Source of the DNA: Mytilus trossulus
Taxonomy: Eukaryota
Reading direction: 5' to 3'
Length of the DNA: 64,000 nucleotides
Assembly (NCBI RefSeq): GCF_036588685.1
Contig: NC_086380.1
Span: 74,896,001 to 74,960,000, forward strand
Position numbers and translations under genes: made by a program. This document shows, in pieces, positions 1 to 46,588 of this stretch. Each line of letters begins with the position of its first letter. Positions within the stretch are counted from its first letter, which is position 1. Below the pieces are notes generated by a model, which saw only the letters and a program-made list of their open reading frames with translations, did no database searches and had not been told where the DNA came from.

Positions 1-224
1 CCATTTTGATAACATGAATTGGTACAAGACGAAATATTTTAAAATTTCAAAGCAATGTACGTCTTTTATGAATATAATCAAATTAACTTCCATGTCATTA
101 ATATTATGCAATCATTCATGTAAAATTTAAGTTAAAAAAGAAAAACTTTTAGAAATAGCATGACTTATCGTTTCTATCGGTGTGACATATATAGTTATCA
201 AAGGTACCAGGATTATAATTTAAT

Positions 225-268
225 ACGCCAGACGCGAGTTTCGTCTACATAAGACTCATCAGTGACGC
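225..268 (-). ncRNA. Type I minimal hammerhead ribozyme, intact core
   Basis: Minus strand reads GCGUCA-CUGAUGA-GUCU(uaugu)AGAC-GAAA-C(ucgc)GUC-UGGCGU: stem I, stem II, conserved core and GUC cleavage triplet are all present. Confidence 0.85.
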
Positions 269-671
269 TTAAATCAAAACTTAAAAAGCCAAACAAGTAA
301 ATAATTGAAGAGCATTAAGGACCGAAAATTCCAAAAAGTTGTGCCGAATACGGCTAAGGTAATCTATTCCTGGGGGTTTGTTAACTGGAAAGAGATAGGG
401 CCAATTTGCCGGAATTTTTTTTCATTCAATAAGATAGGTTAATCATGTTCAAATAGCCCGATAGATGATAATTATAGTACATTAAAATACGTGACATCAT
501 CTATTTTCATACCTTGAGCGGGTATTCCTACAAAACAAGGCCAAGACTATTGATTTTCTAATATTGATTTTATTTTATTATCAACATCCCTTATGCAAGG
601 TACCATACCACGTTACTTGTCAAGGAGCCAAATAATATCAAACAAATTCAAATCGTGTTTTTCTCATCCTA

Positions 672-900
672 AAATTGAAAAAGGAAATGGGGAATGTGTC
701 AAAGCAACAACAACCTGACAATAGAGCAGACAACAGCCGAAGGCCACCAATGGGTCTTCAATGTAGCGAGCAACTCCCGCACCCGTAGGTGTCCTTCAGC
801 GGGCCCCTTAAAAAATATGTATACTAGTACAGTGATAATGGACGTCATACGTAACTCCGATTTATACACAAAAACTAAAATTAAAAATCATACAAGACTA
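672..900 (+). repeat. Dispersed repeat (aaaattgagaatggaaatggggaatgtgtcaaag family)
   Basis: An inverted copy lies at 15298-15419, with degenerate copies near 3310 and 10010. Confidence 0.65.
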
Positions 901-960
901 ACATATAACTATATGTATATCTGTATTCGTCCTTGCCTTTTAATGTTTTATCGTCTATAA

Positions 961-1640
961 GATAAGATAAGATAAGATAATACATGTATATATTTTAACC
1001 GGAGAACATCTTACATCAGTTGGTCATAGATCACCCTGTGTTACTAACACATGTTATATTGCCTTTCCTGGCATTTCAACAAATCGGGCCCTCGTTGTGA
1101 TACTGATGCAACAGCTTCTTGATGTTTTACCTACAATCACGTAAGTGTAATTGATTTGTTCTGTTGTGTTTTGTTTTCTGATGACTTAGGTACCGGTGTG
1201 AGGGACGGTGGTAAACATTTCAGTGCTAGTATCTACACATTTTGTGAATTGGCTACAAAATTGCTGTTGACTGCATTTGCTACATATAATACCATGTTCC
1301 AAAAAAAGTTTCGAAATTTTGTTGTTGTTGTTTTGAAACTTGTCTACAATGGCCTTTTTTATGTTATGTTACTATACCCGCAACATTTGGTCTTCATTGC
1401 TATAGAATCAATTCTCGTGTTATTGTTGGTATGTATAGGCACTTACACCAGTTTGACGGCAGTTGTTCCTGGAATATACGTAATAAGAATAAACACATAT
1501 ATAGAAAGTAAGTCAAGAGTAGAGACAGTCATAGGAATGCACACAATAAGCGATACATTATTTTTTTCTTTGATAAATGTAAAATGATATAGTTCTGTGC
1601 TCTACTGATGGAGCCACGGCGATGCTTATCCAAATATTTC
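961..1640 (-). mobile_element. Possible highly decayed LINE 3' fragment with (TTATC)n tail
   Basis: (GATAA)4 at 961-980. Broken minus-strand peptides (IPGTTAVKL, YSNEDQ, IKKLLHQYHNE) loosely resemble a LINE ORF2 C-terminus, with many stops. Confidence 0.25.
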
Positions 1641-2254
1641 TTATTACAGCGCTTTATCGGTACAATTTAGCGATGTTACAATCTTTTCTTTAAAAAAACA
1701 TAACTTTTTGTGGTTTAAAATGTCCTTCTGGGGGGATTCCCTGTTTTTCCCAACTAAAAAAACCCGAAATTCTGCATATTTGACTTTAATCCTTTTTGAG
1801 GGTTAAATTAACTATTGATCACACATATTATAATCTATGTAAATCAAGATATTGATCAAAAAGTATTTTAATTCTTTGTTTTTGTAGTAAATTTCATTCA
1901 GTCGGCACTTTTTAAAATTGGCCCTTCTGTGAAAAAAATTCCCGGCAAATTGACCCTACCTCTTTATAAAAATGACCATATAATTGATATTCATCTCAAC
2001 ACCGAAGTGCAGCTTACTGAGCTGGTGATACCCTCGGGGACGAAACGTCCACCAGCAGTGGCATCGACCCAGTGGTGTAAATAGTTATCAAAGGTACCAG
2101 GATTATAATTTAATACGCCAGACGCGCGTTTCGTCTACATAAATGTTTGTGAATATTCAGCTTATGCATTTTGATTTTGTTTTTTGTTTTTTGTCTTCAA
2201 TTTGTATCAGCAAGTTTTAAATTGATTTCTCGCTTTCACTTCATTTCATTTCTA

Positions 2255-2445
2255 GGAATAGATAACCTTAGTTGCATTTGGCAAAACTTTTAGGAAATGT
2301 TGGTCCTCAATGCACTTCAACTTCGAACTTTATTTGGCCTTTTAAACCTTTTTTTATATTCGATCGTTACTGATTAGTCTTTTGTGGATGAAACGCGCTT
2401 CTTGCGCCAAGACAAAATGTTAATCATGTTATCTAAGATAAGTTT
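2255..2445 (+). repeat. Degenerate retrozyme-family copy with mutated hammerhead
   Basis: cgtta-CTGATTA-GTCT(tttgt)GGAT-GAAA-cgcgc-TTC at about 2364-2407, with flanks similar to the 191-375 repeat in opposite orientation. Confidence 0.6.
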
Positions 2446-5634: not shown

Positions 5635-6891
5635 TAAAACAAAGATGGAAAACACAGCTCAAAACAGACAAGAGGTGTGTATGATAATGATGATAGAAAT
5701 ATCAACAACACCAAGACAAATGAATACGGAGGAATTACGAAATACAAAGACAACTTTAAACAGAATAAATCAAATGTGCAGATCGAAAGACGATAAGAAA
5801 TGTGTGAAATGACGAAATAATTTCAAACAGAAATAAAAGACCAGATCAAACAAGAAAATAGACAAATATTTATTTACAGAATAACACTCTGTATTTTTTA
5901 CATTTAATTTTGATGTGTCTGTTGTGGTTTCGGATAGTCGGTATGTAATACCTTGACGTTTGTTGACTTTCCATACCATCATTGTTATGAACATTGATTG
6001 GACAAACATTGTGAAAATAATTGTTTAAAGTTCGAGATTGCCTGTTAGTTACGTCAACGCATCACTGTTTTTAATATTATGCGGTGTTTGTCGCTGATGA
6101 TCTATGTTTGTTGTTGTGTCGACTATAATATTATTTGTTTGTGTCGTTCTCTGTTATGAATGATCGTGCTTGTGTTTGTGCTATATTTCTGTCACGAATT
6201 ATGTTCCTGTTGTTCCTTTGTTGTCGTCTTATGATTGATGTGTTTGCCTCGGTTTTCGTTTGTGGCCCGGATTATTTTGTCGGACGATTTGTGAATTTTG
6301 AAGACCAGTAAAAATTGCCTTTGGTTTCAAACATATGGAAAAGGGAAATACAGCTTTAAACTTATTTCATCGTGTATTTATTGGACAAAGTATGATTAAT
6401 GACGAAGACAAATTCACCAGACAAAACGACTGATAAAAATATAATATGACAATGTTAATATAAAATGTAATGATACAACAAAGTTTAACGAAAAAGAATA
6501 GCCCGTTTATAGTTTGTGATGACCTCAAAATTACCACAGTTGATATAGGAACATGGGGTAGATGTATATGAGTGCCAATGAGAAAACTCTCCATTCAAGC
6601 AACAATTTATAAAAGTAAACTATTATAAGCTTACACCGAACAGCAAGCTATAAAGGACCCCAAAAATAACTAGTGTAAAAGCATTCAAACGGGAAAACCA
6701 AAGGTCTTATCTATATAAAAACGGAAAACAAGAAACACTTACAATGTACGAACCACATAAACAGACCAAAACCACTGAACATATACAAAGATTTTTCGAG
6801 GGGGAATGGCTCGTTTGGAAATTATTTATTCATGTTATTAAATTTTTGTCTGATAAGAAATAACCCAGTGAATGTTACAATAACATAAACA

Positions 6892-6935
6892 GCACCAGAT
6901 GCGCATTTTGACAATACATGTCTCTTCAGTGATGC
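6892..6935 (-). ncRNA. Variant type I hammerhead ribozyme (second subfamily; GAAA changed to AAAA, probably inactive)
   Basis: Minus strand reads GCAUCA-CUGAAGA-GACA(uguau)UGUC-AAAA-U(gcgc)AUC-UGGUGC. All stems co-vary relative to the 225-268 copy. Confidence 0.7.
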
Positions 6936-7139
6936 TCGTGGCCAAAATATTTGAAACCCAAAGCTTATATAAAAGATGAAGAGCTATAATCCAAATGGTA
7001 AAAAAGGTAATGCCAAATCCGTTAAAACAATCAGAGCTTTTTTTTTTAAATTCCTTTATTTCCATCAGTTGCTTGTTACATTGTCTTCAACAAGTCCAAG
7101 CTCCTTGTGAAGAATACATATAAATTTCAATTCTATATA

Positions 7140-8050
7140 TTAATAAATAAAACATCAATCTAATAAATGTTTCTTAACATTAACTAAAAAATTATCTTCT
7201 TTTAACTTCTTTGAATAATACATTCGTTTTGTAAATTCTCTAATAAATAAACAAAAAACATCAAGTCTTTTCATTTTCTGATCAGATCCATAGTAGGATT
7301 TATAAATTGAAAACCCAATAATAGTTATAAGAAAGTTAAAGCCAAAGTAATATTTATCAGATATTTTATAGCCAAAAACAATATCTTTCAATGTTAAATC
7401 TTTTTCTATATTTACTTTTTGCAATAATTTATGAATTTTTCTCCAAAAATCGTGCAAAACAGAACATGACATAAAGTAATGTTGATAATCTTCTTCAGTA
7501 AAATATTTATTACATAAATCATTGTCTGTTACCTTCCATCAAAATAATAACTTTTTGGTTGGTAAAATGCTTTGTAAAAGTTTCCATCGATACATCTTTA
7601 ATTTATTTTCTTCTAAATAGTAAAAAATAAAGTTGTACAATGGTTTCAAATGAAATTCTGTCTGTAATGGTAATACATTTAACCATACATGCATACCAAT
7701 AGGTTTCACAATTTTTTTCTTTACTAATCTGTTATATAATAACTTATTTGTCAAAAAAGAAATGTCAATATATTTACCATTTATTGACAAACATTGTCTT
7801 TTTACATTGACTATACTTCTTGTTGAATTCTCTGATCTAAGACATTGTAACCCATCTTTTGGAATTGCTTTTTTTAGGGATGTCAACTCAGCTATCCAGT
7901 TGGATTTATTTTCATTTTTTGGCAAAATTACATCTTGTGAAATTTCGCCATTTAAAATATATAAAAGAATCAGAGCTTTGCATGAGGGAGAAACATTCCG
8001 TAATCTATAATAATTTCTAACATTTTGTAAGAGCAAATTTTAATAACACA
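7140..8050 (-). mobile_element. 5'-truncated, frameshifted L1/Tx1-clade LINE ORF2 C-terminal fragment
   Basis: ORFs 7539-8036 and 7155-7472 contain KLKMYRWKLLQSILPTKKLLF, HYFMSC...FW and FNFLITIIGFSIYKSY, typical of the zf-RVT / C-terminal region. Confidence 0.75.
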
Positions 8051-9463
8051 AACAATCCGTATTTACAAACGTCGATTTTACACCTTATCACAATAATCAA
8101 CCCTAATTGCTATCATTGACCGGCAACTAGTGTTTTAAATAATCAGGGCAGACACACTTGAAAGGCAATTTCAGATGATTAGTGTAACAGTGATTTTTTA
8201 TAAGTCAAAGTACGGCCTTCAACGTGAAGCTTTGGCTGACACCGAACAGAAAGATATAAAGGACCCCAAAAATTACTAGTGTAAAAACAACCAAACGGGA
8301 AAACCAATTAACGGTCTAATCTATATAAAACGATAAACAAAAAAAATTATGAACCACTTAAACAGACGACAACCACTGAACATATACATAGATTTTTCGG
8401 GGGGAGGGGGGAATGGCTCTTTCGTAATTTTGTTTATTCTTGCTATTTAAACTTTGTCAGATAATAAACAACCATGTAAATGTTATAAACGTCGATTTAA
8501 CACCTTATTACAATAATCAATCTAATTACTATTATTAGCCGGAAACTAGTGTTTAAATAATCACGGCAGACACTTAAAAGGTAATTTCAGTTGATTAGTG
8601 TAACAGTGATTTTCTTTTTTATAAATCGTGCTTAATTTCCCACAAAATTGTTTTTAAATGTATAAAGATAAATGTTTCAATGAGATAAATCGTAATGCGA
8701 AAGTAACAAAAAAAGTGCGAGCAGAAAACAGCTAGTAAGAACCAAAGATGTTTGAACACAGCGAGAAAACTACGCAACCAGAATCGTTCTTTAGCTTCTC
8801 TCTTAAAAATACTTTATGATCAAAGACAATCCAAAAACCCAACATGAACAACAAAGAAATTCAATTTCATAAGTGAATAATGGACTGACCAGGCCGTTAA
8901 CCAGTGTTTAACGAATAACTATATAGAAAAGACAAACAAAAGTATACAAAATACAATTTAGAAACATGAAGACTTAGCATTATAATGTAACAAAAAAAAA
9001 CAGGGGTGATTTTATGTGATTCGATGGGATGGCAGATCCTGTTCCACCAGGGACACCCTTAGATTTTTTTATGTAGGTATAGGTGCATTCTCAATGACAA
9101 TGGTACGCTACCATATATATTACCTCGAAATAATGTTATTAGCATAATGATAGTACTTTCACTGAAATATTTTTTTGTAGTAAACACAAGTAATGATGGT
9201 TGGTTTCACGTTTAATGTGTTCATGTTATGTTGTACGTTTGTGATTGCAACTCATGGAAAGATTATTATATTTTATCGCACCACTGGTAAAATATCACGT
9301 TGTGATTGGTTTAGCGCCGACACGTCGTAAGTAAATTTCAAAGGGGGTTCATGACGTCACGTCTTCTGTTAATGCTGACGTCGTCTACTGATGTTGTTGT
9401 ATTTCATTGTTTAATTTCTACAAAACGGGGTAGGATAAGTCCTGCGTGCAATAATTTCGTTAT

Positions 9464-9597
9464 ACGGTTCACTACTGACCCCCAACGAATCCATAGAGGG
9501 TGAATGAAATATATAGGGTACTCGGCCTACGACCTCACCTCTATCGATTTTATTTACCTTCTATGGATTAACAGGGGGTCAGTAGCGAACGATATAA
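9464..9597. repeat. Long imperfect palindrome, end of a foldback/MITE-like element spanning about 9265-9600
   Basis: gttcactactgacccc...atccatagagggtgaatgaaat pairs with attttatttaccttctatggat...ggggtcagtagcgaac. Confidence 0.7.
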
Positions 9598-10600: not shown

Positions 10601-11259
10601 TGCTTGTATATTTAGGTCTATCAATTACAAAGTACGCGGAGTTAGAAATGACCAAAGGCTGTATTGGACAAGGTGCAATGTTGTTTTGTGAGAGACCCGT
10701 TGCCTGATTATGAATGGTTTAAAGATGGAGTCAAACTAGAACATGGTGGTCGTTTTAACATCAGACGACATCCATCGGGATCATCAAGGTAATTCTCACA
10801 AAACCACATGACAAAACTTATGACAAACCACGTGAGTCAGTATATAAAATGCGGAATATAAAATTATAAACTAAAAAAGAGACCGACAAATCTTTGACAA
10901 TCTGTCAAAAAACTAATTAATTTACAAAAAACTACCAATTACAATAAAAGCTGAGAAACACAACCACTACATAAACAACCGGTGATTTTACTTAGTTCTA
11001 AGAAAAACAAATATTTTCAAACGCATTATATAATATAGGACGACTCTGTTTACCTTATAATTAGATGTTCCAACATCAGACATTGATCAGTAAGTGATGA
11101 ACATAAATATTAATAAATTATTTAAATGGCATTAGTTAAGGATTTTCTTATCCCAGATATAGATTACATAAGACGTATTTGGCACAAATTTTTGGAATGT
11201 TAGATCCTCAATGCTCTTCAACTTTATACTTGTTTGGCTTTATAAATATTTTGATTTGA

Positions 11260-11303
11260 GCGTCACTGTTGAGTCTTATGTAGACGAAACGTGGGTCTGG
11301 CGT
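11260..11303 (+). ncRNA. Type I hammerhead ribozyme with core substitution (CUGUUGA), within retrozyme fragment 11135-11340
   Basis: GCGTCA-CTGTTGA-GTCT(tatgt)AGAC-GAAA-C(gtgg)GTC-TGGCGT. Confidence 0.75.
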
Positions 11304-12473
11304 ACTAAATTAATCCTGGTACATTTGATAACAATTAGTTATCGTGAGAAGTATGAAAAATGTTATTCTATATATAAAACGTCTGCAACTTACTGCTGAA
11401 TAAATTCATATATATGTACCCCATATCCTTTGTTTTCTATCACCGGTATATTCGACATTTTATGATGCAATTCTAAATATTAGAACTGTGCAGGATTTAA
11501 CAAAATATTTCGTTGTCATATTTTCCTCATTATATTACAAAATTGAACAAGGATTCTACAACCAACTTTAAGTGTGAATATATAGGACGCATAGATCTAA
11601 AGATGAAGATAGAGATGTACAAAAAAATCTTAATGTGGAAATTAGCAACCTTTTAGTTTTATTTAGACAATATATGCTGTTTAATTTACTATCTTTTTGA
11701 TTTCGAAGGGTGATAATAGTAAATTTGAAAGATTCTGATAGTGGAGTGTATGTATGTAAGGCTTCTAATTCGGCGGGGACAGAAACCAGTAGTGGTACGC
11801 TCAGGTTTACAACAGGTAATAATTACATTAGATGTATGTTTCATAATAATACTGTATTTTGATTGGCTAACTGCACATCACGTGTTATTCTGTAGGCAAT
11901 TGCATCACTCAATAACACTTTTCATTCATGATAGCATATGGTCCCACAATAAAGTGCACAGGCGAATAACATACAAAATTGATAAAATCCGTGTGTTTAT
12001 GGTCATAGCTAAAAAATGTAATTATAAGTATTGAATGCTTCTTTTTATAACTTTATAGGGTTGTAAAAGCGTTGACCGAATTACATTTTGTATGAAGCGC
12101 GGAACACCCCAATAAATTTACAAAAAGAAGCATTCAATTCTTAAATAATTTGGTGAATGAAGTGATAGTGTTTACTTACTTTTGAACATAGTAAAATTCT
12201 TAAGTTTCAAAATTTTATAAAATTCAGACAGGAAAAGACTAAAAGTATCAACAACTTATATGATTTTATAGAAAATATACGAGAAAAAATAGTTATATGT
12301 AACAATGAAAAAAAAAAACCTTTCAAATTAAAGTTACATTGTATGAAATTGTGTCATTTGATAGACAAGATTTTTAACCTACAATCAATATACTGGATAA
12401 TCCCCGCTTGTCATTTATAAACACATATAAGGTAATGGAAATATATTTTTTTTCTTCGTGAAAACAGGTTTTT

Positions 12474-12682: not shown

Positions 12683-14947
12683 TAACTAATCTGTTAACTG
12701 AAACGATATATATGTGTCTTAATTAACGAGTCATGTTGATCTAGGATTCGCCAGAATTCGTCTAATTTGTAAATCTACATACATATCACAGAGACATTAC
12801 GTCGACTGGTTCCTTCAATGTTTTCACTTTGTTCGTATTTTAAAAATAGATTGTCGAGATTTTAACTTCAGTTAGTACAGCTTTATAAATACACGATATT
12901 TCTTTACTCTTTTGCAGATTGCTTATCTAGTGCAGTTGAAGCGAAATATTGTTTCATGCGAATACAAAAAAATAAAGGTATTTTAAAACCTGCAAATACC
13001 ATTCCTTTATCATTTGTTTTTTTCAAGATAATTGATAAAAATAGAAATAAATGGAATACGTATTAATCAAAATGCGAAATCCAGGAGAAAAAGCAGAATC
13101 CATCAACACAAATGAAATTACCATATGTGAACGTTAAAAGACTATACTATACGGTTAGTCTATTTATTCACTGGGCAAAACATGTGTTCGTACATGTCAC
13201 ATTTCAAGATCTCAATTAATTAAATATATTGAAAAGTAAAAAAAATAAGAACTCCGAGGATTGTTTTAAACGAAAAGTCCTTTATCAAATGAAAAGAAGA
13301 AGCCCAAACACAACAAGCGAATGGAAAAAAGGTCATATTTCTTCGCGACACTGAACAAATATTTCTTTATGTAGAAAATAGTGGATTACACCTGGATAAC
13401 AAGCACTTTAGGGTTTCAATACTTTAACTCTGGGCAATGTTGAGTTAAATATATGGTTATAACAATGATGTGGATGGTTCTTATATTATAGTGAAGAGGT
13501 GCTCTCATAATGCATTATAGTTTCAAGATTGTAGTATAATGTACACCAATCAGATGTATCTTCCTGTACTCTTTTTTTTCCAGTTCAATTGTGGTTCGTA
13601 TTTAGGTTTGCTTTCAGTCATACATTAAAATTCTTGTTTCGTTGTTTACCGAATGTCAATAATTTAATTAATTATTGTGATATGTACTCAGCGATGTACA
13701 TTCAACTTAAGGAAATATGCTACGACAGAGGTAAATATAAAGAGTGGTAATATCATCTTATGTTGGTGTAGAATGATTTGATTTCGTATTCAATTAGAGA
13801 GGAATCTAAAGAGGAAAACATACCCAGCCACGTCAACTTGTATTATTGTCCATCTGATGACTTAAGCCTTTTTACAACTGATTTTTATAGTTCGTTCTTT
13901 TGTTGTACTGTTTTACCACTGTTTAAAGTTAGAAGACGGTTGTGATCCCGCTAACATGTTTAACTCCGCCACATTATTTATGTGTGTTCCTGTCCTAAGT
14001 CAGGAGCCTGTTATTCAGTGGTTGTTGTTTATTCTGTGTTATATATTTGTTTTTCGTATTTTTTTATATAAATAGGACTTTTAATTTTCTCGTTTAAATT
14101 GTTTTACATTAGTAATTTTGGGGCCCTATATAACTTGTTGTTCGGTGTGCGACAAGGCGCAGTGTTGAAGGCCGTACATTGACCTATAATGGTTTACTTT
14201 TATAAATTATTATTTGAACGGAGAGTTGTCTTATTGGCACTCACACCAGATCTTCCTATATCTATTTAAGTAACAAAATATGTCAGTACTGACGTTCTGA
14301 CTACTGAGTTCGTGAAATCAATAGGAACTACACTATCTATTGGGGATAGAAGTCCTAGTAGTCTTGGGCACTTGATGTCACAATAGAGATTTCTATTCGC
14401 CGTTTCAGAACCTAATGCATTATGGGTAATATTTTCAAAAGCGTACACCAAAACGTTGTGATTGGTTAAAATCGTTCTAAACAATGTAAATTCAACCAAT
14501 GACATAACGGTTTTTTTTTTCTCATTTTGGTGTAAAGAACAATGAGATTAACTATAATCCTTTAAATTCCGAAAAGGCAAATTGGTTTATTGTTCCTATT
14601 TCTTTATTTTCAATACTGAGATTTCATATTTGTCATGGCCGTTATTGGATTTTAGTTTCGTAATCAATATTTAAAAATATAAAAAACAAAGATATGGTGT
14701 ATAAATGTCAATGAGTCAACTATTGACAAAGTTAGAATGATATAATTGTAGGCAATTAAAGGCAACTGCACGGGGTTTAGATTTAGATTTAGAAAACTAA
14801 CAGCATAATTCATAACAAAATCATTAACGGAAAACAAAATATGACCGAAATGATTCAACGACAACCACTGAACTACAAACTTCTGAGTTTGGACAGGAAC
14901 ATATAGAATGTGACGGGATAAAATCCTTTTGTAAACGCTCAAACTTC

Positions 14948-17196
14948 CCCTTACACAGTGATGTAACAGAAGAAACCATTAAAATCAGTCTTAAAAGACA
15001 AACTTGTCATAAGGATGCAAATAGAAACAAAGACAAAATACAAAGTGAACATGTACGGGCACTTATACATCCCAAAATTAAAATAACACCAAAAACAGAG
15101 TTCTCGCAGTCATGGACAGACAATTCAAGGCGAATAAAGCCTTTTTATAACATCATGATGTATAGTTCTGGATGCGTACGATAGTTTGTTATATATCAAA
15201 GGTAAACATATAGATATAGGAAGATGTGGTGTGAGTGCCAATGAGACAACTCTCCATCCAAATAACAATTAAAACCAACAAAAAAAAACAACAACATCCT
15301 CCGGGTGCGGGAATTTCTCGCTACATTGAAGACCTTTTGGTGACATTCTGCGGTTGTTTTTTTTTTATTTGGTCGGGTTGTTGTCTCTTTGACACATTCC
15401 CCATTTCCATTCTCAATTTCATGTAAATACACATACAACATACATGCTACTATTTATGCATCTATCTAGGTGTGATTAACTATAGGTGTTCTTTTTAATT
15501 TTTGTGTCGTTCGGATTGTGTCGCAATTCATTTGAAACGAATAAGATATATGATATGAGTGCTTATGAGCTACTCTCCATCTAAGTAAAGCCGTTGAAAA
15601 TGTTTACAACTATATTTCAAAATATAGCCTTCATCTCAGAGCCTTGATTCACAACAAACAGCAAGATATAAACGACGAGTGTAAATCAAACGAAAAAGGA
15701 AAACCAACGGTCTAATCTATAAAAAAAAATAAGTAACGATAAACACCAATCATCATTAACAACAAATAACAACCACAGAACGACATGCACAAGTCTTAGG
15801 ACTTGAGCATAAACATGCACCGGGTTTAAACGTTGAACTTGCACCAACCTTCACCCTCACCTGTGAGAGAATGATTTTTGTGATAGTGTCTCTTTTTCAA
15901 TGTGTGTTGTAATATATTATTAATGATTGACTGAATATAAATTGTCGAGCATTTATCGAAACTAAGACCTTACACCTATGCTTGGAACAATACGTAATTT
16001 TTAAGGAGTTATTTTATTGTTTAAATAGTAGTAACATTAATTCTACATTTTTCTAATGATGGTTTATCATAAGTCTCTACATAAATAACTAGTCTGGTAT
16101 CTAAAACAAAGTTTGGGGAAATGAACATCCCCTTTCACAGTGATGTAACAGTAAAAAAATAGAAGAAACCATTAAAATCAGTCTTAAAAGACAAACTCGT
16201 CATAAGGATGCAAATAGAAACAAAGAAAAAATACAAAGTGAACATGTACGGGCACTTATACATCCCAAAAATAAAATAACACCAAGAACAGAGTTCTCGC
16301 AGTCATGGACAGACAATTCAAGGCGAATAAAGCCTTTTTATAATATCATGATGTATAGTTTTGGATACGTACGATAGTTTGTTATATATCAAAGGTAAAC
16401 ATACAGATATAGGAAGATGTGGTGTGAGTGCCAATGAGACAACTCTCCATCCAAATAACAATTAAAACTAAAAAAAAAACCAACATACATGTAAATGACA
16501 TACAACATACATGCTACTATTTATGCATCTATCTAGGTGTGATTAACCATAGGTGTTCTTTTTAATTTTTGTGTCGTTCGGATTGTGTCTCAATTCATTT
16601 GAAACGAATAAGATATATGATATGAGTGCTTATGAGCTACTCTCCATCTAAGTAAAGCCGTTGAAAATGTTTACAATTATATTTCAAAATACAGCCTTCA
16701 TCTCAGAGCCTTGATTCACAACAAACAGCAAGATATAAACGACGAGTGTAAATCAAACGAAAAAGGAAAACCAACGGTCTAATCTATAAAAAAAAAATAA
16801 GTAACGATAAACACCAATCATCATTAACAACAAATAACAACCACTGAACGACATGCACAAGTCTTAGGACTTGAGCATAAACATGCACCGGGTTTAAATG
16901 TTTAACTTCCACCAACCTTCACCCTAACCTGAGACAGAATGATTTTTGTGATAGTGTCTCTTTTTCAATGTGTGTTGTAAAATATTATTAATGATTGACT
17001 GAATATAAATTGTCGAGCATTTATTGAAACTAAGACCTTACACCTATGCTTGGAACAATACGTAATTTTTAAGGAGTTATTTTATTGTTTAAATAGTAGT
17101 AACATTAATTCTACATTTTTCTAATGATGGTTTATCATTAGTCTCCACATAAATAACTAGTCTGGTATCTAAAACATAGTTTGGGGAAATGAACAT
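14948..17196. repeat. Recent tandem duplication of about 1.07 kb (14948-16127 and 16128-17196)
   Basis: Both copies run from cagtgatgtaacag...gaaaccattaaaatcagtc to gtttggggaaatgaacat with few differences. Copy 1 has an extra 122-bp repeat fragment at 15298-15419. Confidence 0.9.
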
Positions 17197-17495: not shown

Positions 17496-18445
17496 TTTTT
17501 ATACGCCCGTCGTCTTTTAGACGGGACGTATTATGGTATACCGTTGTCCGTCCGTCCGTCCGTCGTCCACACTTCGGACAATAACTCAAAAACACTTTCA
17601 CCAATTTCCATGAAACTTAAGTGAATTGTTTATATCTATTGACATAAGCTCCCTTTCATTTTTTTTTAAATTTCAGATTTTAAGTTTTGGATTTATGGGG
17701 CTTTATTCATAAAAAAGGGGGGATTTTCAACAGTTCGGACAATAACTCAAAAAGGCTTTCACCAAAGTCCATGAAACTTTGGTGAATTGTTTATATCTAT
17801 TGATGTAAGCTCCCTGTCAATTTTTATAAAATTCAGATTTAAAGTTTTGGATTTATGGGGCTTTATTCATAAAAAAGGGGGATTTTTAACACTTCGGACA
17901 ATAACTCAAAAAGGCTTTTACCAATGTCCATGAAACTTTGGTATAATGTTTATATCTGTCAATGTAAGCTAACTTTTAATTTTTATAAAATTCAGATTTT
18001 AAGTTTTGGATTTATGGGGCTCTATTCATAAAAAAGGGGGATTTTTAACACTTCGGACGATAACTGAAAAAGGCTTTCACCAATGTCCATGAAACTTTGG
18101 TATATTGTTTATATCCATTGATGTTAGCTCTCTTTCATTTTTTAAAAATTTCAGATTTTACATTTCCGTGTTATGAATTTTTATGCTTAAAAAAGGAGGG
18201 ATTTTCCAATTTTGGGACAATAGCTAACACTTTCACAAAATTTTATGCAACTTTGATAAATTGTTTATATCTATTGACCTTAATAAAGCCAATTTTTTGG
18301 TGCATTTTTATTTATTATTTGGGGGGGGGGGGGGTATTTGACAGGGCTCACACTATTTCTAGTTGATCATATAAATTCATTTAAAGCATAAAAGACAAGT
18401 TAAAAGAGCAACGGGCGTATCATGCGCTAAAGTGCAGCCCTTTAT
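17496..18445 (+). mobile_element. Helentron-type non-autonomous element (HINE/DINE-1-like) with a core tandem repeat of about 160 bp
   Basis: T-run, subterminal IR ATACGCCCGT (17501-17510) and ACGGGCGTAT (18411-18420), 5' hairpin cccgtc/gacggg, (GTCC)n microsatellite, about 4.5 units of 159-161 bp, 3' stem-loop tgcgctaaagtgca, then a T-run. Confidence 0.85.
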
Positions 18446-19003
18446 TTTACATCACTGGATCGATACCTCTGCTGGTGTACTATAAGTTCCTGAGGATATC
18501 ATCAGTAGTCAGTACGTCGGTACTGACATGGTTAAACAAACTTTTAAAAAATTATCCGACTCTTTTTCATCTAAAGAGTTGACGAATCATTTTATATAAA
18601 CTAGTAATATTTCCAGGAATAATATGACCACATTTTAATTACGTTTATTTATTAAAAAATAAATGCTGCTTTGTATACAGAAAATCAAAGAGAAAACTTG
18701 ATATAATACAACAATATGCACGCACCGACAATTGTTCAAACCTTAGAGACTTGAAATTACTATTTGTGCAGTAATGTTTTGTCTCTTGTTTTTATGAAAT
18801 AATGATGTTCAATTAAGTTATCTTGTCGTGCATGTAGGAGAACATAGGTATTTTATATACAATTTCAAAGTCAAACTTTATTTTCTTCAATTAAGAATTC
18901 TTATTGAATTCTTTTCAAACCCATACTGATATCTTTTTTTTCAAGTCTAACAAATATGTTTTTACCTGAATAGTTATAAAAAGTACCAGGATTATAATTT
19001 AGT

Positions 19004-19047
19004 ACGCCAGACACGCGTTTCGTCTACATAAGACTCATCAGTGACGC
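19004..19047 (-). ncRNA. Type I minimal hammerhead ribozyme, intact core, in retrozyme fragment 18970-19115
   Basis: Minus strand reads GCGUCA-CUGAUGA-GUCU(uaugu)AGAC-GAAA-C(gcgu)GUC-UGGCGU. Confidence 0.85.
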
Positions 19048-20115
19048 TCATATCAAAATATGTATAAAGCCAAACAAGTACAAAGTTGTAGAGCATTGAG
19101 GATCCAAAATTCTGAAAAGTTAAAGTTTAATAATCATTTGTTTAAGGAGAAATGGTTTCAAATTACATTCCTTGTACATTTATGCTATGTTAGACACTAT
19201 ATTGATATATTTCCAGCAAATTCGAACTCAGACCATAATCCTGTGCCATTGTGAATGCAATTTGTTTCAGAATCTAAATGGTTATAATTGGCATTCTATA
19301 CAAAAATAAAGACCTGGTGCAATTTAGCAACATAACTTTTGCAAAAAGAAAAGATCTACCGCAAATTTATAAACTTTATCTTTTATATATCTCGTCTTTT
19401 ATATCTCTCGTGTTTTACATCCTGAGATCACCCCCTAGTTTTTGGTGGGGTTCGTGTGGTTTATTCTTTAGTTTTCTATGTTGTTTCATATGTACTATTG
19501 TTTTTCTGTTTTTCTGTTTGACTTTTTCATTTTTAGCCATGGCGTTGTCAGTTTGTTTTAGATGTATGAGTTTGACTGTCTCTCTGGTATCTGCCGTCCC
19601 TCTTTTATACGTGTGTATATTTTTCTATTTGACGGCATTTTGTTTCAGACTATGGTTGTTTTTGACATCTCACACCTAATTTTATTATTTCGTATTTACA
19701 TTGTGTCGTAAATCAAATTTATTCGCTCGATGTATATTCACTTGTTTGTGTTAATATGTCTTTTGATTGAGTTAAGCCATTACAATTGATATTTTATAGT
19801 TGGCTTTTCTATGGTGTGATGTTACATGACTGTTTCTGGAAAAGGTAAAGGTTGTTACCTATAAAAACGTTTGAACCCACTGAATTTGTTTGCATCCGTC
19901 CTTATACAGAAACCTGATGTTTAGTGGTTGTCGGTTGTTGGGCTGTTTCTTGTTTCTTGTTTTTTACACAGATTGTACCGTTGGTTATTCCCATTTGAAC
20001 AGTTTTAGAGTCTAGTCACTTTGGGACCCTTTATAGCTTGCTGTTTGTTGTGAGCCAAGACTACGTATTCAAGACCGTACTTAGACCTATAATTTGTTGG
20101 CACTCATAAAAGAAA

Positions 20116-20432
20116 GCCGTGGTGTAGTGGTTAGTGCATCGGACTACTAACACAAAGGTTCCTGGTTCGATTCCCGTTAAGGAACTTAATTTTCGGCTCT
20201 CCCTCGACACCATTTGCGGGTATGGTCTTGATGAAACGATGATAGTCCGTCGGAAGGGGACGATAAATAGCTGACCCGTGTTAAGAGAGAGCCATAACTC
20301 TTGCACGTTAAAGACATCCTTGTAGATTTTGAAAAAGAGTAGGATAATGCCGCTACAAGGCAGCACTCACACCCGCAAAATGAAAAGGGATTGATATAAG
20401 ATGCAAAACTTGTTTCCCAATCCACTATAGAT
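20116..20432 (+). mobile_element. tRNA-derived SINE with Meta-domain-like body
   Basis: A box TGGTGTAGTGG, B box GGTTCGATTCC, then a body containing gcacgttaaagaca. It interrupts the host repeat at ggcactcata|ccacatc. Confidence 0.75.
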
Positions 20433-20739
20433 AACTATGTTTAGACCACATCTTTTTACATACATTTTACAACATTGGGTTTCCCTGAATAATCCTATAG
20501 TCTAATATATAACTTTCACCCATGTTGACAATCACTATTTTGTAAATAACAAGTGTTAAAACGGGCATATCGTCTATTTATTCATAAAAAACAAATAGTG
20601 TTTTCAGTTGTCATACTTTTGTGAAGATAAACAGCTTTTTTACGCCTCGAAAGTTCAAATAAAGGAATAAAGAAAACATGTCAATGTTTTGTATAGTATT
20701 ATTAAATTCATTATCCAAAATTGCATTATCATTTATAAA

Positions 20740-21300
20740 AAAATGTCGAATAATGGCGCAGCTTGATATGACTGCAAAGGTGAACTCTGAACAGTTGGGA
20801 AAAGATACAGCTCTGAATTTGGATTGTGGTTAAATATCTGACACAACATAGGTTTCTGTTACAGAATGATGTGGTCTAGTTGAACTTGAAAAAATCAAAT
20901 TTACCTATTATGGGCCAATATCTAAAATTTAAATACACGATTTGACTCAGCATATCAAAGAATCCGAAACATTTAAACAAGGTTTAATTTTGGACCCTTT
21001 TGACCTTAATGTAGACCAATTTAAAACAGGACCTCTAATCCAAAATATAAATAAATGTTTAGATTCAGCATATCAAAGAACCCTTAGATTTCAATTTTTG
21101 TTAAAATCATGCACAAGGATAATTTTGAACCCTTTGGACCTCATGTGAACCAATTCAAAAACAAGGCCCAAATTTCTAAAACTTAATACACGGTTAGATT
21201 CAGCATTTAATCGAACCCCAAGAATTCAAAAATAGAACTCCATTGATATTGGTCAAGAAATGAGCAATCTTTACCAAGTATTAGAAAAGTCTTGGTTTTT
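20740..21300. repeat. Satellite-cored dispersed repeat (units of about 115-120 bp, ttagattcagcatatcaaagaacc)
   Basis: The motif recurs at about 20940, 21060 and 21195. Inverted multi-unit copies lie at 29760-29930 and 30640-31430. Confidence 0.7.
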
Positions 21301-21369: not shown

Positions 21370-22600
21370 ATGTGAAATACCTGAACGCATAAGATGTCTG
21401 CATGTTTATTTATATTTACGAATAATCGATGGTAAAATTGAGTAAATAATTGAAAAATCATCTCTTTTGTCATAAATTTTGGTATTTTAAGCATTCCGCT
21501 AAAGATAAATATACCAAGATCCAGGAAAGAGCAGTGTTCATTGATAGTTTTAGCTTTATTTGATTTCAAATCGGCAGGATAAATTTCTTTATTATACATA
21601 CTGCAGGCTGCATTATTGAAAACCAATATATCATCCAATTATCTAAAAGTATTTTCAATTAATTTGAAATCAGATGTTGTTTCGATGGGTCTTTGCTGAT
21701 TTTAATCATAAATTGTAACTCATAACAATACAGAAACATGTCTGCAATAAGTGGTGCACAGTTTGTTCCCTTGAAATAACGATAACTTTACGATATACAG
21801 AATCTCGATAGCGATCAAAATGTTATCAAGTGAAAAATCAAGAGCAGTTAAGTATCAAAGCAGGTCCAATTGACATAGTTTTTTTTGTTTGGTGTTACTT
21901 CAATATGACATAAAAGAGTTTCAAAATATATGTTCGCATTCTGACTTTTTAAATGTCCATTTTATGAGGTGAGTGAATTTTTCTTAATAAAATTATAAGT
22001 CATAGTGGTAGATAGGGTTGAAAAATTAAAAATTTGAACAGATTTAAAATCACTAATATAAGCATGTAATTTATCAAGTACTTCCAACAAATTTTTTACA
22101 GTCCAAAATTAAGGTTATTAATTCCACTATTCTTAAAGGCCTTATTTGAACAATTTATTATCAGGTTTTTGATTGTATCAAGTGAACTAGTAAGTAGAAT
22201 ATATATTTTAGAAGTGGAACAATGGCTTGAAGACATAATAAATCTACATTTTAAGGAGTTTTGTGCAGCTTCAAATGCCAGTACATAGTTGGAACTTTCT
22301 TTTTTTTCTTTCTGCTTGTAAAGAAGTAGCTTTTTTCCGATAATGGAGTCAGTTGAAATGAAGGTGAATTCGTGATTCCCTTTTGCGGAACCTCAATGTA
22401 AAATTTACATCAAACAATAATGATATTATTAGCAGCCTTAACATCCGGGAATAAAAAAAATATCCTTTACGAGTTCTTTTAGCTTATGTTTGATATGAGA
22501 AATAGGGCTATTATGGTTGATGTACTGAATTAAAAATAGAATCTAAGGATTTCTTTTCAGCTTGCGTTTTATCCATTTTGAACAGTATGTATGAATGTAT
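21370..22600 (-). mobile_element. Decayed Penelope-like element reverse transcriptase
   Basis: Minus-strand motifs in the expected order: MYWHLKLHKTP (~22270), FNFSTLST (~22020), GTNCAPLIADMFLYCYE (~21750), DDILVFNN...EIYPADL...FLDL (21366-21638). Stops and frameshifts throughout. Confidence 0.85.
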
Positions 22601-28368: not shown

Positions 28369-29050
28369 AAGACTACTGCATGTCACTATAGCAATATGTA
28401 CAATAATTATTCTAATGCATTTTTATGAAAGAATCATTTTCATTGGCTAAAAGATATCGTTAAATCCACAGTTGACCAGTTGTAAGTTCGTAACTATGGA
28501 GAGATTCCCATCTTGAATTCATTGGATCAACAAATGTTAATCACTGCAATATTCTGATGTTGTTACGGAATGTCAGAAATATAGGATATAATACAAAAAA
28601 GTTACCTTTACTTGTTAAATAAAAAGCCCGGTCTTTATTTTTTCACAGCCGAAAGTCTGCAGGGTGTTCATTCACGAATTTTCCTTATTCAACACTTTTG
28701 TAGTCAATCAGTTATTAACACCAGATGAAACCAAACCAAAATGGGAAAAGATTACACTTTCACATACGCAAATTTTCAAATGTTTTACATTTAAGAATTC
28801 CTCATTTTACGAAGAGGGTAGACAACAAGAACCCAAGTGTGTTGAATTGCACCCCTTCCTCTTTACTCGAAGATGTATATGCATAACGCTATATAAATTT
28901 GTAAAATGTAAATAGAAAAGTAAAGATTTATCAACTTTCATCATCAATTTGTTAACTTCATTTTACAGATCTTTATGATTTTAACAATAAAGTCATTATA
29001 AACATCTGCCGATTTGGAATGAGATCTGGACTATCTTTCAGCTTTTAGTT

Positions 29051-29236
29051 AATGAAAACATTCAACAATACGGCTAAAATTCAATGAAAACATTCAACAA
29101 TACGGCTAAAATTTAATGAAAACATTCAACAATACGGCTGAAATTTAATGAAAACATTCAACAATACGGCTAAAATTTAATGAAAACATTCAAAAATACG
29201 GCTAAAATTTAATGAAAACATTCAACAATACGGCTA
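29051..29236. repeat. 32-bp minisatellite, about 5.8 copies (aatgaaaacattcaacaatacggctaaaattt)
   Basis: Head-to-tail units start at 29051, 29083, 29115, 29147, 29179 and 29211, with no spacers. Confidence 0.95.
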
Positions 29237-32700: not shown

Positions 32701-34142
32701 ATTCAGTGGTTATCGTTTGATAATGTGTCACATATTTGTTTATCGTTAATTGTTTTACATAAATAAGGCCGTTAGTTTTCTCGCTTGAATTGTTTAACAT
32801 AGTCTTATCGGGGCCTTTTATAGCTGACTATGCGGTATGAGCTTTGCTCATTGTTGAAGGCCGAACGGTGACCTTTAATTGTTAATGTTTGTGTCATTTT
32901 GGTCTTTTGTGGATAGTTGTCTCATTGGCAATCATACCACATCTTCTTTTTTATAATTGAATTCCAGTTATAACCATCTAGATTCTGAAACAAATTGCAG
33001 TCACAATGACATGGGATTAGAATTTGCTGGGAAAATATCAATATAACAAATGATTATTAAACTTAAGTTTAAAATAATTCTAAATGATACATTTGTTAGA
33101 TTTTAAAAAAATATATCAGGATGGTATCAAAAAGGGTTCAATAAGAATTCTTAATTGAGCAAAATAAAGTTTGACTTTGAATAATAAAGGCAACAGCAGT
33201 ATACCGCTGTTCAAAACTCATAAATCCATGGACTAAAACAAAATCAGGGTAACAAACTAAAACCGAGGGAAACGCATTAAATATAAGAGGAGAACAACGA
33301 CATAACACCGAAACGGACCAAGCATCAGACAAAACACCACGAGAATAACAAATATAACATGAAAACCAAATACATGAATTTGGGATAGACAAGTACCGTG
33401 CCACGTCTTATCTCAATATCTCAAAAATAAGAGAAAACACAAACGACTCAACGTTAAAATGCAACACACACATAAACGAACAATAATATAACAATGGCCT
33501 TCTTCCTGACTTGGTACAGGACACTTTTAAAGGGAAATAAAAGTGGTGGGTTGAACCTGGTTTTGTGGCATGCCAAACCTCGCACTTTAATGGCATAGTT
33601 AAATATAACATTGAGATGACAACATAATATTACAGGACTACAATACAAATAAATAGGAGAACATATTAAACAAAGAAAAACATGATTAATAGATTACAAA
33701 AAGCATCAGGTTTAAAATTCAATACGCCAAAAACGCGCCTTGTCCACACAAAAATCAACAGTGACGCCCAAATATAAAAGATCGAAAGTGAAAAAAGTAC
33801 AAAGTTGTACAGCACTGAAGATCAAAAGTTGAAAAGGTTTCGCCAAATACGGCATTGTTATTATATATAAAATACCTCTGTTCTCCTACATGCAGGACAA
33901 GATAACTTAATTGAACGCCATTATTACATAAAACAGTACATGTCTTGTCATATGAGACAAAACATGACTGCACAAATAGTAATTTCAAGTCTCTAAAGTT
34001 CTTTTGAACAATTCTCGCTGCTTGCATGTTTTTGTATTATATCAAGTCCTTTCTTTCATTTCATGTACGAAAAGCATATATATTTTTGAGTGAATAAACG
34101 TAATTAAAATGGGTTCATATAATTCCTGCAAATATTACTAGT
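29750..34142 (-). repeat. Right arm of the inverted duplication, with arm-specific insertions (about 29930-30640, 32390-32953, 33183-33860)
   Basis: Same anchor pairs as listed for the left arm, collinear in reverse order. Confidence 0.8.
33183..33860 (-). mobile_element. Penelope/retrozyme-related repeat with decayed hammerhead at about 33724-33768
   Basis: Minus strand gcgtca-ctgttga-ttttt gtgt ggac-aagg-cgcg-ttt-tggcgt plus retrozyme-like flank. It is absent from the left arm. Confidence 0.55.
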
Positions 34143-35158: not shown

Positions 35159-38100
35159 TTAGAAAAGTTTTGTACTCATTGCATCGGCGTAATGTGAGGC
35201 ATTTGAGTCTTCAAAACGATTTATTTCTTTCATGAAAGCAATATCCTTCAATGCCGGCAAACACTGTCTGTACAGAGATAAAATAAGTAGCATGTTCACT
35301 TTTATGCCCGTCTTGCTTGAAAAGTTGTTATACTTCCTTCTTAAAATGTACATGAAAAATATTATCAAAAATTTGTTCTTATCGATTTCGGTTGGCGTTT
35401 GTAATAATAGACTCAGTATCTCTTTATGTCCATGATATAGGGCCAAATGCCATGGCTTGAGACGAGCAAAATTTGTTTCAACATCTGTATCAGCGCCAAA
35501 TTCTAACAAGACCCTGCATTGTTCTGTACTACCATTTTCTGCGCAAATGTGTAAAGGATACTTCCGAACTTTAAAATGATACAAGAAGAAGAATTTTACG
35601 ATTGTGTTGTTGTTTTCATAAATAATCGCATAAGGCGCATCTAAGTTTGCCAATGTGTTACTGTCTGCACCTTTTTTAAGTAACAATGTCAAGATGGAAA
35701 CATTTCCGCATAAGCAAGCCACATGGAGAGGTGAAAGCATACATAAAGCGTCCCTGTTTTCAGGAAAAGAGCATAAAGTATCCACATATCTGTACTTATT
35801 CAAGAACAAACATATATGCCACACAGATATTGAACATATGTCGTCCATTGTTTTAACTTGTGATGAAATCATTCTGGTTAATGTTACGTTTTGCATTAGG
35901 CAGGCCAAATGTAAGGGAAACATTTTTGAATGAGTAGGAATTGTCACAAGTTCAGATAATTCGAATTCTATTGATAATTTAGCAGACAACTTCAGATCGG
36001 CATTTCGTCTTATGAATAACTCCCCAATTTGTATATTTTCTTGAATGCATGCGATGTGAAAAGCTGTCACTTGAAATGACGAATAAGTGGTTATCAACTG
36101 AGCAATTCTTTCGTTGTACTTGAAATTCATATGGAGAGGGAAAATTTTACAAACAATGTCCGTTTTATTTGTTTTTCTCAATAATAATTCAGTAATTTCT
36201 GCGTCATTAATGAGGCTTGCAATGTGCAATGGTGTTAACTCCGATAAAGTGCTGTTATGTTTTTCGCTTTTCTGTACGAAAAGATATTCCTTGGTGAGGA
36301 ATTGTAAATGCAAATAAGTAAGATTTGTAGCTTTGCTGTCGAAATCACACTGTGTATGTGATAAACCTTTTATTCCATCATTGTTTTGTCTAAAACATAA
36401 AATATGGACAGGAGCCATTTGTCCCATTTGTGGGAAGTTCTCATTTATAGCGTATTCTTTCAAGTATTGCGTATTCCCAGTAATCAAAATAATATGTAAA
36501 GAAGATAGGGTTGCGAATGAGTTCACGTTACATTTCATCATTAATAACTTCAATACACGTGATTTCAAATCTTTAAGGCATGCAACATGTACAGATTGAA
36601 GTTCTGCATTCAAGCTTAAATTCATCATCTTCTCGTATGGCATCATTTCTAATATTTCAATTAAACTCATTTCAAGGAAACAAATAAGATGCAAACATGG
36701 AATGGTATATGTAATGTTCATATCGACATTCGAGTTCAGTAACCATTTCAAATTACGTTTATTGTTATGCAAGCATGCTGCAATTGCAGACGTAAAGAAC
36801 ACCTTAATTTCTTTAGCCTCAGGCATTTCAAATAATATATCGGAAATGTTTCCACAAGTTAAAAACTTCAACTCTAATGCTGATGTCATAATTCCATGTT
36901 GGGGAATCCCACAGGAAAAATCTACAATGTCAATATCCCGTAAACAAAATAGATCAACCATGCCAAAACGTATGTAATAATTTGATAAACTGGTAAAATT
37001 CATTATGTTTAGGACGGTATCCCATTCATTGTTAAGACATGCAGATAAAACTATACTAAAATTGACAGATGTGCACAATCCTAAATGTTTGAGATCTGTT
37101 AATATTTCATCAGTTTCATCGATATCCAAATCTATGATGGAAACAATGAGATCGGAATCCTCAATTGCACATATTTTCGGCAAATCTGCAACTACAAAAT
37201 CGGGCAAATGGTAACATATTTCATCAAAATGTGTCTTGCGATACAATAACCAAGCAAGAAAACAAATAGGAAAACTGCTTTTTAACTTTTGCCTATCTAA
37301 AAATAAGGATGGTGGTTTTTCTTTTCCAAAACACAGTGTTAACAAACACGGTGTTACATATACAGATGTCTGCATTATACTCGGAAGTTCTAGCAAAGTT
37401 TGTAAAATATAGGGATCAGTAAATAAGCAACTGAATTCAAACAATGAAATGTTTAAGGCACACTGGTTTCTGTTCCATGGTATCTCACAGTCAATAAAAT
37501 TATTAAGGTAATCGTCATCTGTCAATTTAGAAATGCACAATAAATGTGAACATTGTATCGTAAACATGTGGTTTGCATTTATGTTACTATTCAAAATCAT
37601 TTTTAAGTGATCACTGCATCCTCTTAAGCAAAGAAAATGAATTATAGTCATATCTGTGCTGTCATTAAAACTCCCCAAAAATGGCATTACAGTTGCTATT
37701 ACATCTTCGTCGTTTTTAAGTAAAGCAACAAACAATGTATTTAAACTGCATCTAGATGTTAGGGCAAAAATGGCGCGGCGAACTAAAATCAAAGATGTTA
37801 TTTCTGGTTGAATTGATATTATGTCAAGTAGACTTATATCTGTTGAATATGTAGTTGATGCATTATTTTTTAACAAAATATTGATGAGTTCAGAATTTTC
37901 CATTAAAGTCGCATACAATAGAGGTGTGACCTCAGTCTTGCAATGTTCCTCTTGTAAGTTATAAGTTTCTAAAACCTCAATAAAAGATGAATTTCCAGCT
38001 AGTGACGATAAGAGTAAAGGATTTATATCAAATTTACTATTTACATCAATAAAACCATAATCTACAAATATTTGGACTATGTCATTGAATCCTAATATCA

Positions 38101-46004: not shown

Positions 46005-46588
46005 AGGGAGATCCCCTGTCTACAGCCACGTCCTATTTGAAAAAAGTCTGAAAGATTTCCTCTCTGAATGACTGCAAATGAGATATTATTATAAAATACT
46101 TTAACCCAGTTGATAATAGATTCACTAAAATTAAAAAATTGCAAAACTGACAACAAAAAGTCCCAAGATAGAGAATCAAATGCTTTTTCAAAATCAATTA
46201 AAAGCAAGAAACCTGGAGAATTGTGTTCTTCTGTATATTGTAAAAGATCGTAAATCAATCTGATGTTATCCCCAATAAAACGCCCACGTATAAAGCCAGT
46301 TTGATTTAAATCCATCAGTTTGTCTAAAACTTTTTTAAATCTACTAGCAATAACCCCTGAACCAATTTTGTATACAGTATTAAGTTAGGAGATTGGTCTC
46401 CAACTTTTGAGTAAATGCATTGGTTTAATGTCTTTTGGTAGGCATGTAATGATTCCCTGCCTTTGAGTCACTGATAAAGGTCCCAAATTTGACCAATAAT
46501 TCAAAGATTTAACAAAAGCTTTCAAATCCTTCCAGAAAAAATCTGTTGAAAAACCATCTAACCCTGGTGATTTATTATTATTCATTTT
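46005..46588 (-). mobile_element. Inverted 5' segment of an L1/Tx1-clade LINE (RT N-terminal half)
   Basis: KSPGLDGF...WRPIS...QTGFIRGRFIGDNIR...IDFEKAFDSLSW...GCRQG, from ORFs 46385-46627 and 45995-46315. Confidence 0.88.

Follow-up and report, generated by a model that had tools for sequence, protein, structure and literature searches.

What is the element at positions 191-2142 of this 64-kb stretch of mussel DNA (the window), and which kind of enzyme wrote it there? A preliminary description had read it as a retrozyme monomer bounded by hammerhead ribozymes, and had named as its mobilizer a Penelope-type reverse transcriptase (RT), a remnant of which lies near the copies. Our analyses support the retrozyme identity, as the type I hammerhead, the 353-nt unit, the two ribozyme variants and the copy number agree with the published Mytilus family (PMC7229834). 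They also reveal that 191-2142 is a dead, 5′-truncated, partial-tandem copy of a 353-nt repeat, comprising ~1.2 units.

An ungapped scan of the whole window with the motif at 19004-19047 recovers all seven type I hammerhead motifs of the preliminary description at the places given there, and a check of cores and stem pairs bears out their grading as intact, changed at one position, truncated or decayed:

225-268, minus strand: type I hammerhead with an intact core and a GUC site; the stem III loop is no longer palindromic
2115-2142, minus strand: hammerhead 3′ half; C3-A9 and both 5′ arms (stems I and II) are absent
2364-2407, plus strand: decayed hammerhead (G8U)
6892-6935, minus strand: second, diverged hammerhead variant with one core change (G12A) and a compensatory change in each stem
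11260-11303, plus strand: hammerhead with one core change (A6U)
19004-19047, minus strand: intact hammerhead with the full core
33724-33767, minus strand: decayed hammerhead, an old copy

The full core together with 11 of 11 stem pairs is present in two of the seven window copies, 225-268 and 19004-19047, both on the minus strand. A structural type I scan of the window gave two intact-core matches, compared with none in 30 dinucleotide shuffles, and four matches when up to one core change was permitted, compared with one in the 30 shuffles. The Rfam check proposed earlier gave a divided result: the Hammerhead_1 model (RF00163) matches both intact copies, with 29.4 and 25.0 bits (E values of 0.0035 and 0.11), but both scores fall under the gathering score of 34. 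Rfam matches to MIR9746 and CRISPR-DR35 were weak and are put down to chance. Searched for more widely, the hammerhead motif was found at no locus in viral contigs and at only three short loci in metagenomes.

The motifs display the conserved core, three helices and open stem I of type I hammerheads. They are not, as had been stated, minimal: the minimal PLE (Penelope-like element) type is defined by the absence of helix III (PMC6155905), whereas the window hammerheads contain a helix III of 2 bp with a tetraloop, and their stem I reaches ~14 bp. The palindromic stem III ascribed to them is perfect in two of the seven window copies (2115-2142 and 6892-6935), and also in the related sequences L001 and L002, but in neither copy with an intact core. 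Comparison of six window copies and L001 reveals two-sided changes at three of the 11 stem pairs, one per helix, which 5 of 500 shuffles reach; all three come from the single copy at 6892-6935 and represent one lineage.

The element itself is built from the following parts:

188-391, minus strand: 3′ portion of the retrozyme unit; ~34 nt of the family unit are absent here, between 374 and 375
191-230, minus strand: tail from the cleavage site (after C at 231) to the fixed 3′ end
392-1962, no strand assigned: 1571-bp insertion with terminal inverted repeats, a Spy-like DNA transposon between AAA and TTT
670-905, no strand assigned: very high-copy repeat nested in the insertion, its approximate edges placed by depth and by loose ends at 670
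1963-2142, minus strand: 5′ part of the unit plus a truncated second lap
2078-2142, minus strand: terminal direct repeat of 188-252, with the hammerhead 3′ half 2115-2142

Read along the minus strand, the element begins inside a hammerhead at 2142, continues through one unit and a whole hammerhead, and ends at 188-191; its 65-bp direct terminal repeats (188-252 and 2078-2142) are identical at 63 of 65 positions. The 188-391 part matches L001 at 164 of 181 aligned letters. The description of a monomer bounded by hammerheads does not hold: with only the 3′ half of an upstream ribozyme, the 191-2142 copy is unable to release a monomer or a circle, and this locus contains no tandem with two whole ribozymes.

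When 392-1962 is omitted, exactly 319 nt lie between equivalent hammerhead positions. The 319-nt unit reported earlier is therefore exact as the length of this copy, but the family unit is longer. In three of four public runs, contigs (11, 7 and 1) join 374 to 1963, and the loose ends flanking 374/1963 overlap to supply a 51-nt segment, which gives a family unit of 353 nt. Positions 375-391 are the decayed last 17 nt of that segment, matching the family loose end by eye at 14 of 17 letters, and therefore ~34 nt have been lost from the 191-2142 copy. An insertion spanning 375-1962 with 51 nt lost was rejected because 375-391 is decayed retrozyme sequence. Thus, two separate events account for the 319 nt, a Spy-like insertion of 1571 bp and the loss of 34 nt, and the circles of ~320 nt anticipated earlier are not expected from a family with a 353-nt unit.

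Placement between AAA and TTT without target duplication defines Spy transposons (PMC4122938). The 392-1962 insertion resembles them in its terminal inverted repeats, its AAA|TTT site and its lack of a target duplication, for which the family loose end before 1963 gives the empty site, and its size is near the typical 1-1.5 kb (PMC4122938). In contrast to Spy elements, which are characterized by a DDE transposase and GGANNNNG termini (PMC4122938), 392-1962 contains no transposase that we could see, its sole ORF of at least 100 aa being without a Pfam match, and its termini begin GAG instead of following the GGANNNNG consensus. It is assigned as Spy-like only. Further pieces of the repeat at 670-905 lie near 3304, near 10010 and at 15298-15419.

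For Mytilus galloprovincialis, Cervera and de la Pena (2020, PMC7229834) described ~5000 type I hammerheads of two families, the repeats that hold them measuring 350-390 bp. These repeats self-cleave, with a kobs of ~0.1 per min for a cloned repeat, and give rise to abundant circles; one construct is named Mg353 (PMC7229834), and the published clones have the accessions MN642551-MN642576. The window family has the same hallmarks, with a type I hammerhead in two variants, a non-coding 353-nt unit (no ORF of at least 100 aa over the unit), low GC (~0.3 for the window, below 50%) and very many copies, as indicated by the very high summed family depth in public-run contigs. The 353-nt repeat is very likely the published Mytilus retrozyme, the match having been made on its published description. 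Of the 24 public runs listed as carrying the family, some are labeled mollusc metagenome, and the contigs of five were analyzed. The family is also carried by contigs of two RNA runs, which reveal neither strand nor circularity and may stem from DNA; by the published work (PMC7229834), and not from the window copies, the family is taken to self-cleave and form circles. Unlike the M. galloprovincialis retrozyme, 191-2142 is dead, with one whole and one half ribozyme, the 34-nt deletion and the 1571-bp insertion. The fixed 3′ end and the Naiad hairpin considered below are not described for the M. galloprovincialis retrozyme in the available text of that paper, which names PLEs only as candidates (PMC7229834).

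The remaining hammerheads of the window lie in further copies of the repeat:

2244-2441, plus strand: decayed 5′-truncated copy in the opposite orientation, holding the hammerhead 2364-2407
6860-7030, minus strand: copy of the second variant, holding the hammerhead 6892-6935
11137-11337, plus strand: 5′-truncated copy, holding the hammerhead 11260-11303
18969-19122, minus strand: 5′-truncated copy, holding the intact hammerhead 19004-19047
33689-33866, minus strand: old decayed copy, holding the hammerhead 33724-33767

Comparison of the copies reveals a common 3′ end. Those with ends at 191, 11335, 18969 and 33689 extend 38-43 nt beyond the cleavage site, and with a family edge from the public runs included, five copies end 38-45 nt past it. 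L001 and L002 end at the same motif, and the 5′ ends differ between copies. The edge is unclear in two of the seven copies; 6860-7030, which matches L001 at 92 of 124 aligned letters, appears to continue ~11 nt into the hairpin arm, and decay prevents placement of the 3′ edge of 2244-2441. The public runs display the same boundary. Loose ends with mixed AT-rich flanks accumulate before 2076-2079 in all four (191 + 219 in X1, 180 + 243 in X2, 106 + 149 in X3 and 6 + 8 + 9 in X24), and summed depth rises stepwise at 2080 in each. The contigs that gave the 374-1963 joint place the boundary likewise, at 2078-2080. The pile-up and the depth step place the family edge ~40 nt beyond the cut, not at the cut. 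Loose ends are also found behind 2076 (124, 129, 74 and 4 in the four runs), which fits unit-length copies and equally a transcript beginning at the hairpin.

Partial tandems, 5′ truncation and tails of 30-40 bp are traits of PLEs and Naiads (PMC8557442), and the family harbors a fixed 3′ end with a tail, variable 5′ truncation and a partial tandem. A cleaved linear monomer would be unable to yield a copy that runs from this edge through the cut into a second lap, whereas a circle or an uncleaved multimer could do so. The copy at 18969-19122 is missing from an old inverted paralogue near 33 kb, and no clear target duplication was apparent at the one empty site examined. For 33689-33866 the paralogue alignment is too poor for exact placement of an empty site. 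The two regions belong to an old inverted duplication or large-repeat pair (18558-21229 and 34184-30631), ~67-86% alike and with different later insertions in each arm.

A gap of 101 bp separates the inverted copy at 2244-2441 from the main element's 5′ end, an arrangement that recalls the inverted copies of Naiads (PMC8557442). The inverted copy matches L001 at 152 of 188 letters, compared with 164 of 181 for the main element, and because it is more diverged the two are probably separate events. In L003, positions 12-330 represent a deleted tandem form with two partial laps, the second without most of its hammerhead.

Directly beside the fixed end lies a candidate signal, and a second copy of it was located elsewhere in the window:

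2016-2076, minus strand: predicted hairpin with bulges (core 2032-2058), adjoining the fixed end of the family on its 3′ side
18446-18530, plus strand: decayed second Naiad-type hairpin copy, from a related repeat (motif 18469-18495)

The hairpin motif occurs these two times in the window and in none of 100 shuffles. In the circular fold, the pairs of the hairpin form mostly with probabilities of 0.84-0.97. Folded alone, it is only modestly better than shuffles (z of -2.03, 8 of 200), and its two other copies show no gain over shuffles (z of -0.91 and 0.00). The stability of the entire 319-nt circle is also unremarkable (z of -1.09, 14 of 100). A role for 2016-2076 in pairing with and blocking the hammerhead was rejected, as the duplex does not stand out from shuffles (38 of 500) and, in the circular fold, the segment pairs internally. 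A short stretch at 14280-14329 (plus strand) matches sequence beside the 18446-18530 hairpin copy (E of 0.0008), without the hairpin core.

The hairpin core recurs in Naiads. Its 9-mer TGCTGGTGG occurs 13 times in the supplement of Craig et al. 2021 (PMC8557442), and 11 of these occurrences are at Naiad 5′ ends; of the other two, one is inside a coding stretch and one is in the Chlamys file, which also holds both occurrences of the reverse complement. Naiad_Olur carries TGCTGGTGG as well, across a line end. The core opens at least 12 of the 54 published Naiad consensus sequences, the count being a lower bound since the search was for the exact word. It is present in 8 of 11 bivalve Naiad families, including Naiad_Mgal and Naiad_Mcor, both from Mytilus, and beyond the bivalves in a fish and three hemichordate families. 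On visual inspection, the core CTGCTGGTGGA...TCCCC(G/A)AG and the bulges are kept while helix pairs are changed on both sides, with C-G to T-A and A-T to G-C in Naiad_CGi and GGAC/GTCC to GGAA/TTCC in Naiad_Tgra; Naiad-1_Skow fits the pattern more poorly. The Naiad hairpin immediately precedes the ORF. Moreover, the element's 3′ end in Naiad_Pmar is followed within a few letters by the next copy's hairpin, the same geometry as in the retrozyme.

The RT remnant that had been placed at 21370-22600 is real, and its extent and probable identity can be given more exactly:

21379-22466, minus strand: dead, probably Naiad-type Penelope-like RT remnant, interrupted by stop codons and frameshifts

A 48-residue open piece of the remnant led to 13 relatives, and one of these to 1240 longer proteins. 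All 120 of the proteins listed among the 1240 match the window only within 21379-22466, on the minus strand and in several frames, and 10 of these 120 are ~26-47% identical to it over longer pieces. The motifs DFSTLYT and QxVGIPMGTNCAP are present in all seven relatives checked, and Naiad_Pmar encodes the same words. The Naiad DKA motif is found in two of four relatives examined, the other two starting later, and the window remnant reads VKAANN at this position. Profile searches added little. RVT_1 matched three of 11 relatives with E values of 0.005-0.05 and one strongly, outside the matched region; the 11 relatives scanned gave no GIY-YIG match, the 13 relatives no Pfam match above the cut-off, the 48-residue piece neither a Pfam match nor a match in a word-based search, and one long relative no match among solved structures. 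No endonuclease part was found in the window. The remnant is probably a dead Naiad-type copy, which would place the clade in the same DNA without implicating the remnant itself in any movement. Indeed, its nearness to the retrozyme copies, from which its role as mobilizer had been argued, is no evidence for that role, and the remnant's reading frame is repeatedly broken. A PLE mobilizer is better supported by the fixed 3′ end and the Naiad-type hairpin than by this nearness.

We consider it probable that 191-2142 is a broken retrozyme copy written by a Naiad-type enzyme for which we predict binding at the RNA hairpin and a start immediately 5′ of the hairpin. Several features are present in the DNA itself: hammerheads, a 353-nt unit, a common 3′ end with 5′ ends that vary, a 65-bp repeat and a hairpin core also found in Naiads. 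Binding by a Naiad protein and target-primed reverse transcription from a fixed start would add the copying step. The template would be a circle formed by cleavage and ligation, or an uncleaved multimer, in either of which the hairpin and the start are joined to a further lap. A Naiad protein would bind this RNA at the hairpin, and copying into AT-rich DNA would begin just 5′ of it. Most copies would end early, and that at 191-2142 would have run ~65 nt into the second lap. The copy has since lost 34 nt and gained the Spy-like insertion, and no circle can be made from it. An anole PLE provides a precedent, as it starts internally, 5′ of a required RNA stretch (PMC11167929). Hammerhead cleavage is dispensable for that element, and unprocessed RNA is its main template (PMC11167929), so a circle would not be required here either.

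The most serious rival explanation would make the hairpin a signal for transcription or a leader, or a relic of a Naiad 5′ end, and would have another PLE (a hammerhead-bearing Penelope/Poseidon, Neptune or similar element) copy the retrozyme. This is possible, though we regard it as rather unlikely. The hairpin motif does lie directly before the start of the Naiad ORF, Penelope has an internal 5′ promoter, and some contigs depart from the element behind 2076, as would be seen with copies or transcripts starting at the hairpin. Moreover, retrozymes of Xenopus resemble the pLTRs of PLEs, and Naiads were found only in coral among 35 genomes (bioRxiv 10.64898/2026.07.22.740005). However, the fixed 3′ end adjoins the hairpin in both the retrozyme and Naiad_Pmar, and the compensatory helix changes seen by eye point to a role at the RNA level near the start of copying. 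Spread at the DNA level, by satellite expansion, DNA transposons or duplications with the hammerhead as a passenger, is very improbable. In its favor, the window is rich in other repeats and includes an old inverted duplication, but the copies share one 3′ end, differ in their 5′ ends and lie in both orientations; in addition, the copy at 18969-19122 is missing from the paralogous site, the element with terminal inverted repeats lies inside the retrozyme and not around it, the hammerhead stems contain compensatory changes, and the loose ends already suggest polarized truncation and single-copy flanks. We give least credence to a viroid-like, ambisense RNA that would replicate from RNA to RNA and have a second hammerhead at 2016-2073 on the other strand. 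The stretch 2022-2047 (plus strand) does mimic the true core spacing (CTGGTGA, 13 letters, GAAAC) and lies in a 6-bp stem in most family copies, and a review mentions negative-polarity retrozyme RNAs (PMC7761336). However, this stretch is not a canonical ribozyme: A6 is G (with A there in fewer than 4 in 100 in all four runs), a G10.1-C11.1 pair is missing, no NUH site abuts stem I, and the stretch was flagged by neither Rfam nor the structural scan. Its resemblance to a hammerhead core is accounted for by the Naiad hairpin, of which it is the reverse complement.

Other features of the window are noted for completeness. An uninterrupted reading frame of 2952 aa at 35159-44017 (minus strand), long for a single exon, encodes an nSTAND3 NTPase and more than 20 ankyrin repeats. 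Broken LINE-type RT pieces (RVT_1, zf-RVT) are located at 45995-48177 and 56819-58676, with opposite orientations at 46-48 kb, and 7155-8039 resembles such pieces by eye, the piece scanned being without a Pfam match. A tRNA-like stretch seen by eye at 20115-20180 (plus strand) heads a possible SINE. Tandem arrays are present at 17569-18277 (159 bp), 29049-29236 (32 bp) and 63248-63703 (171 bp), and imperfect palindromes of ~130-140 bp at 9460-9597, 12020-12150 and 59926-60067; that at 12 kb is the source of the weak MIR9746 match.

Returning to a Naiad-type enzyme as the writer of the copy, comparison with known PLE systems reveals both likenesses and differences. As in the Naiads of Craig et al. 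2021, the retrozyme forms partial tandems with a terminal repeat, is truncated at the 5′ end, has AT-rich flanks and carries the 5′ hairpin core (PMC8557442). Naiads, however, are 3.4-4.4 kb long, encode an endonuclease and an RT and, in the available text, are without canonical hammerheads (PMC8557442), whereas the retrozyme is non-coding and carries a hammerhead. The Anolis Poseidon element PAc likewise has a fixed internal start downstream of the hammerhead site and required RNA 3′ of the start (PMC11167929). In contrast to the retrozyme, PAc is autonomous, belongs to another clade and starts 111-118 nt into its ORF, and its cleavage is dispensable in vitro (PMC11167929). A study of vertebrate retrozymes proposed that they hijack the PLE machinery and resemble PLE termini; in its accessible portion, no mollusc was sampled and no cis-signal named (bioRxiv 10.64898/2026.07.22.740005). 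The retrozyme element, its circles and the general link to PLEs are already in print (PMC7229834; bioRxiv 10.64898/2026.07.22.740005). We found no publication on the Naiad hairpin in retrozymes, in a search that was thin on subscription papers and supplements.

By itself, 191-2142 is an ordinary dead repeat copy, and its value is as a record of mechanism. The mobilizer of animal retrozymes is still only proposed in the literature, and the way in which Naiads choose their RNA and their start is not described in the portions of the literature examined. The shared hairpin beside the fixed end merges these two questions. We lean, by a little, toward the view that the mussel retrozyme is a two-part parasite, in which a circle-making hammerhead is combined with a hairpin from the Naiad 5′ end that recruits the Naiad enzyme and fixes its start. 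If true, this would name the mobilizer of an animal retrozyme and, at the same time, the signal that Naiads use on their templates, which is conserved across bivalves, hemichordates and a fish.
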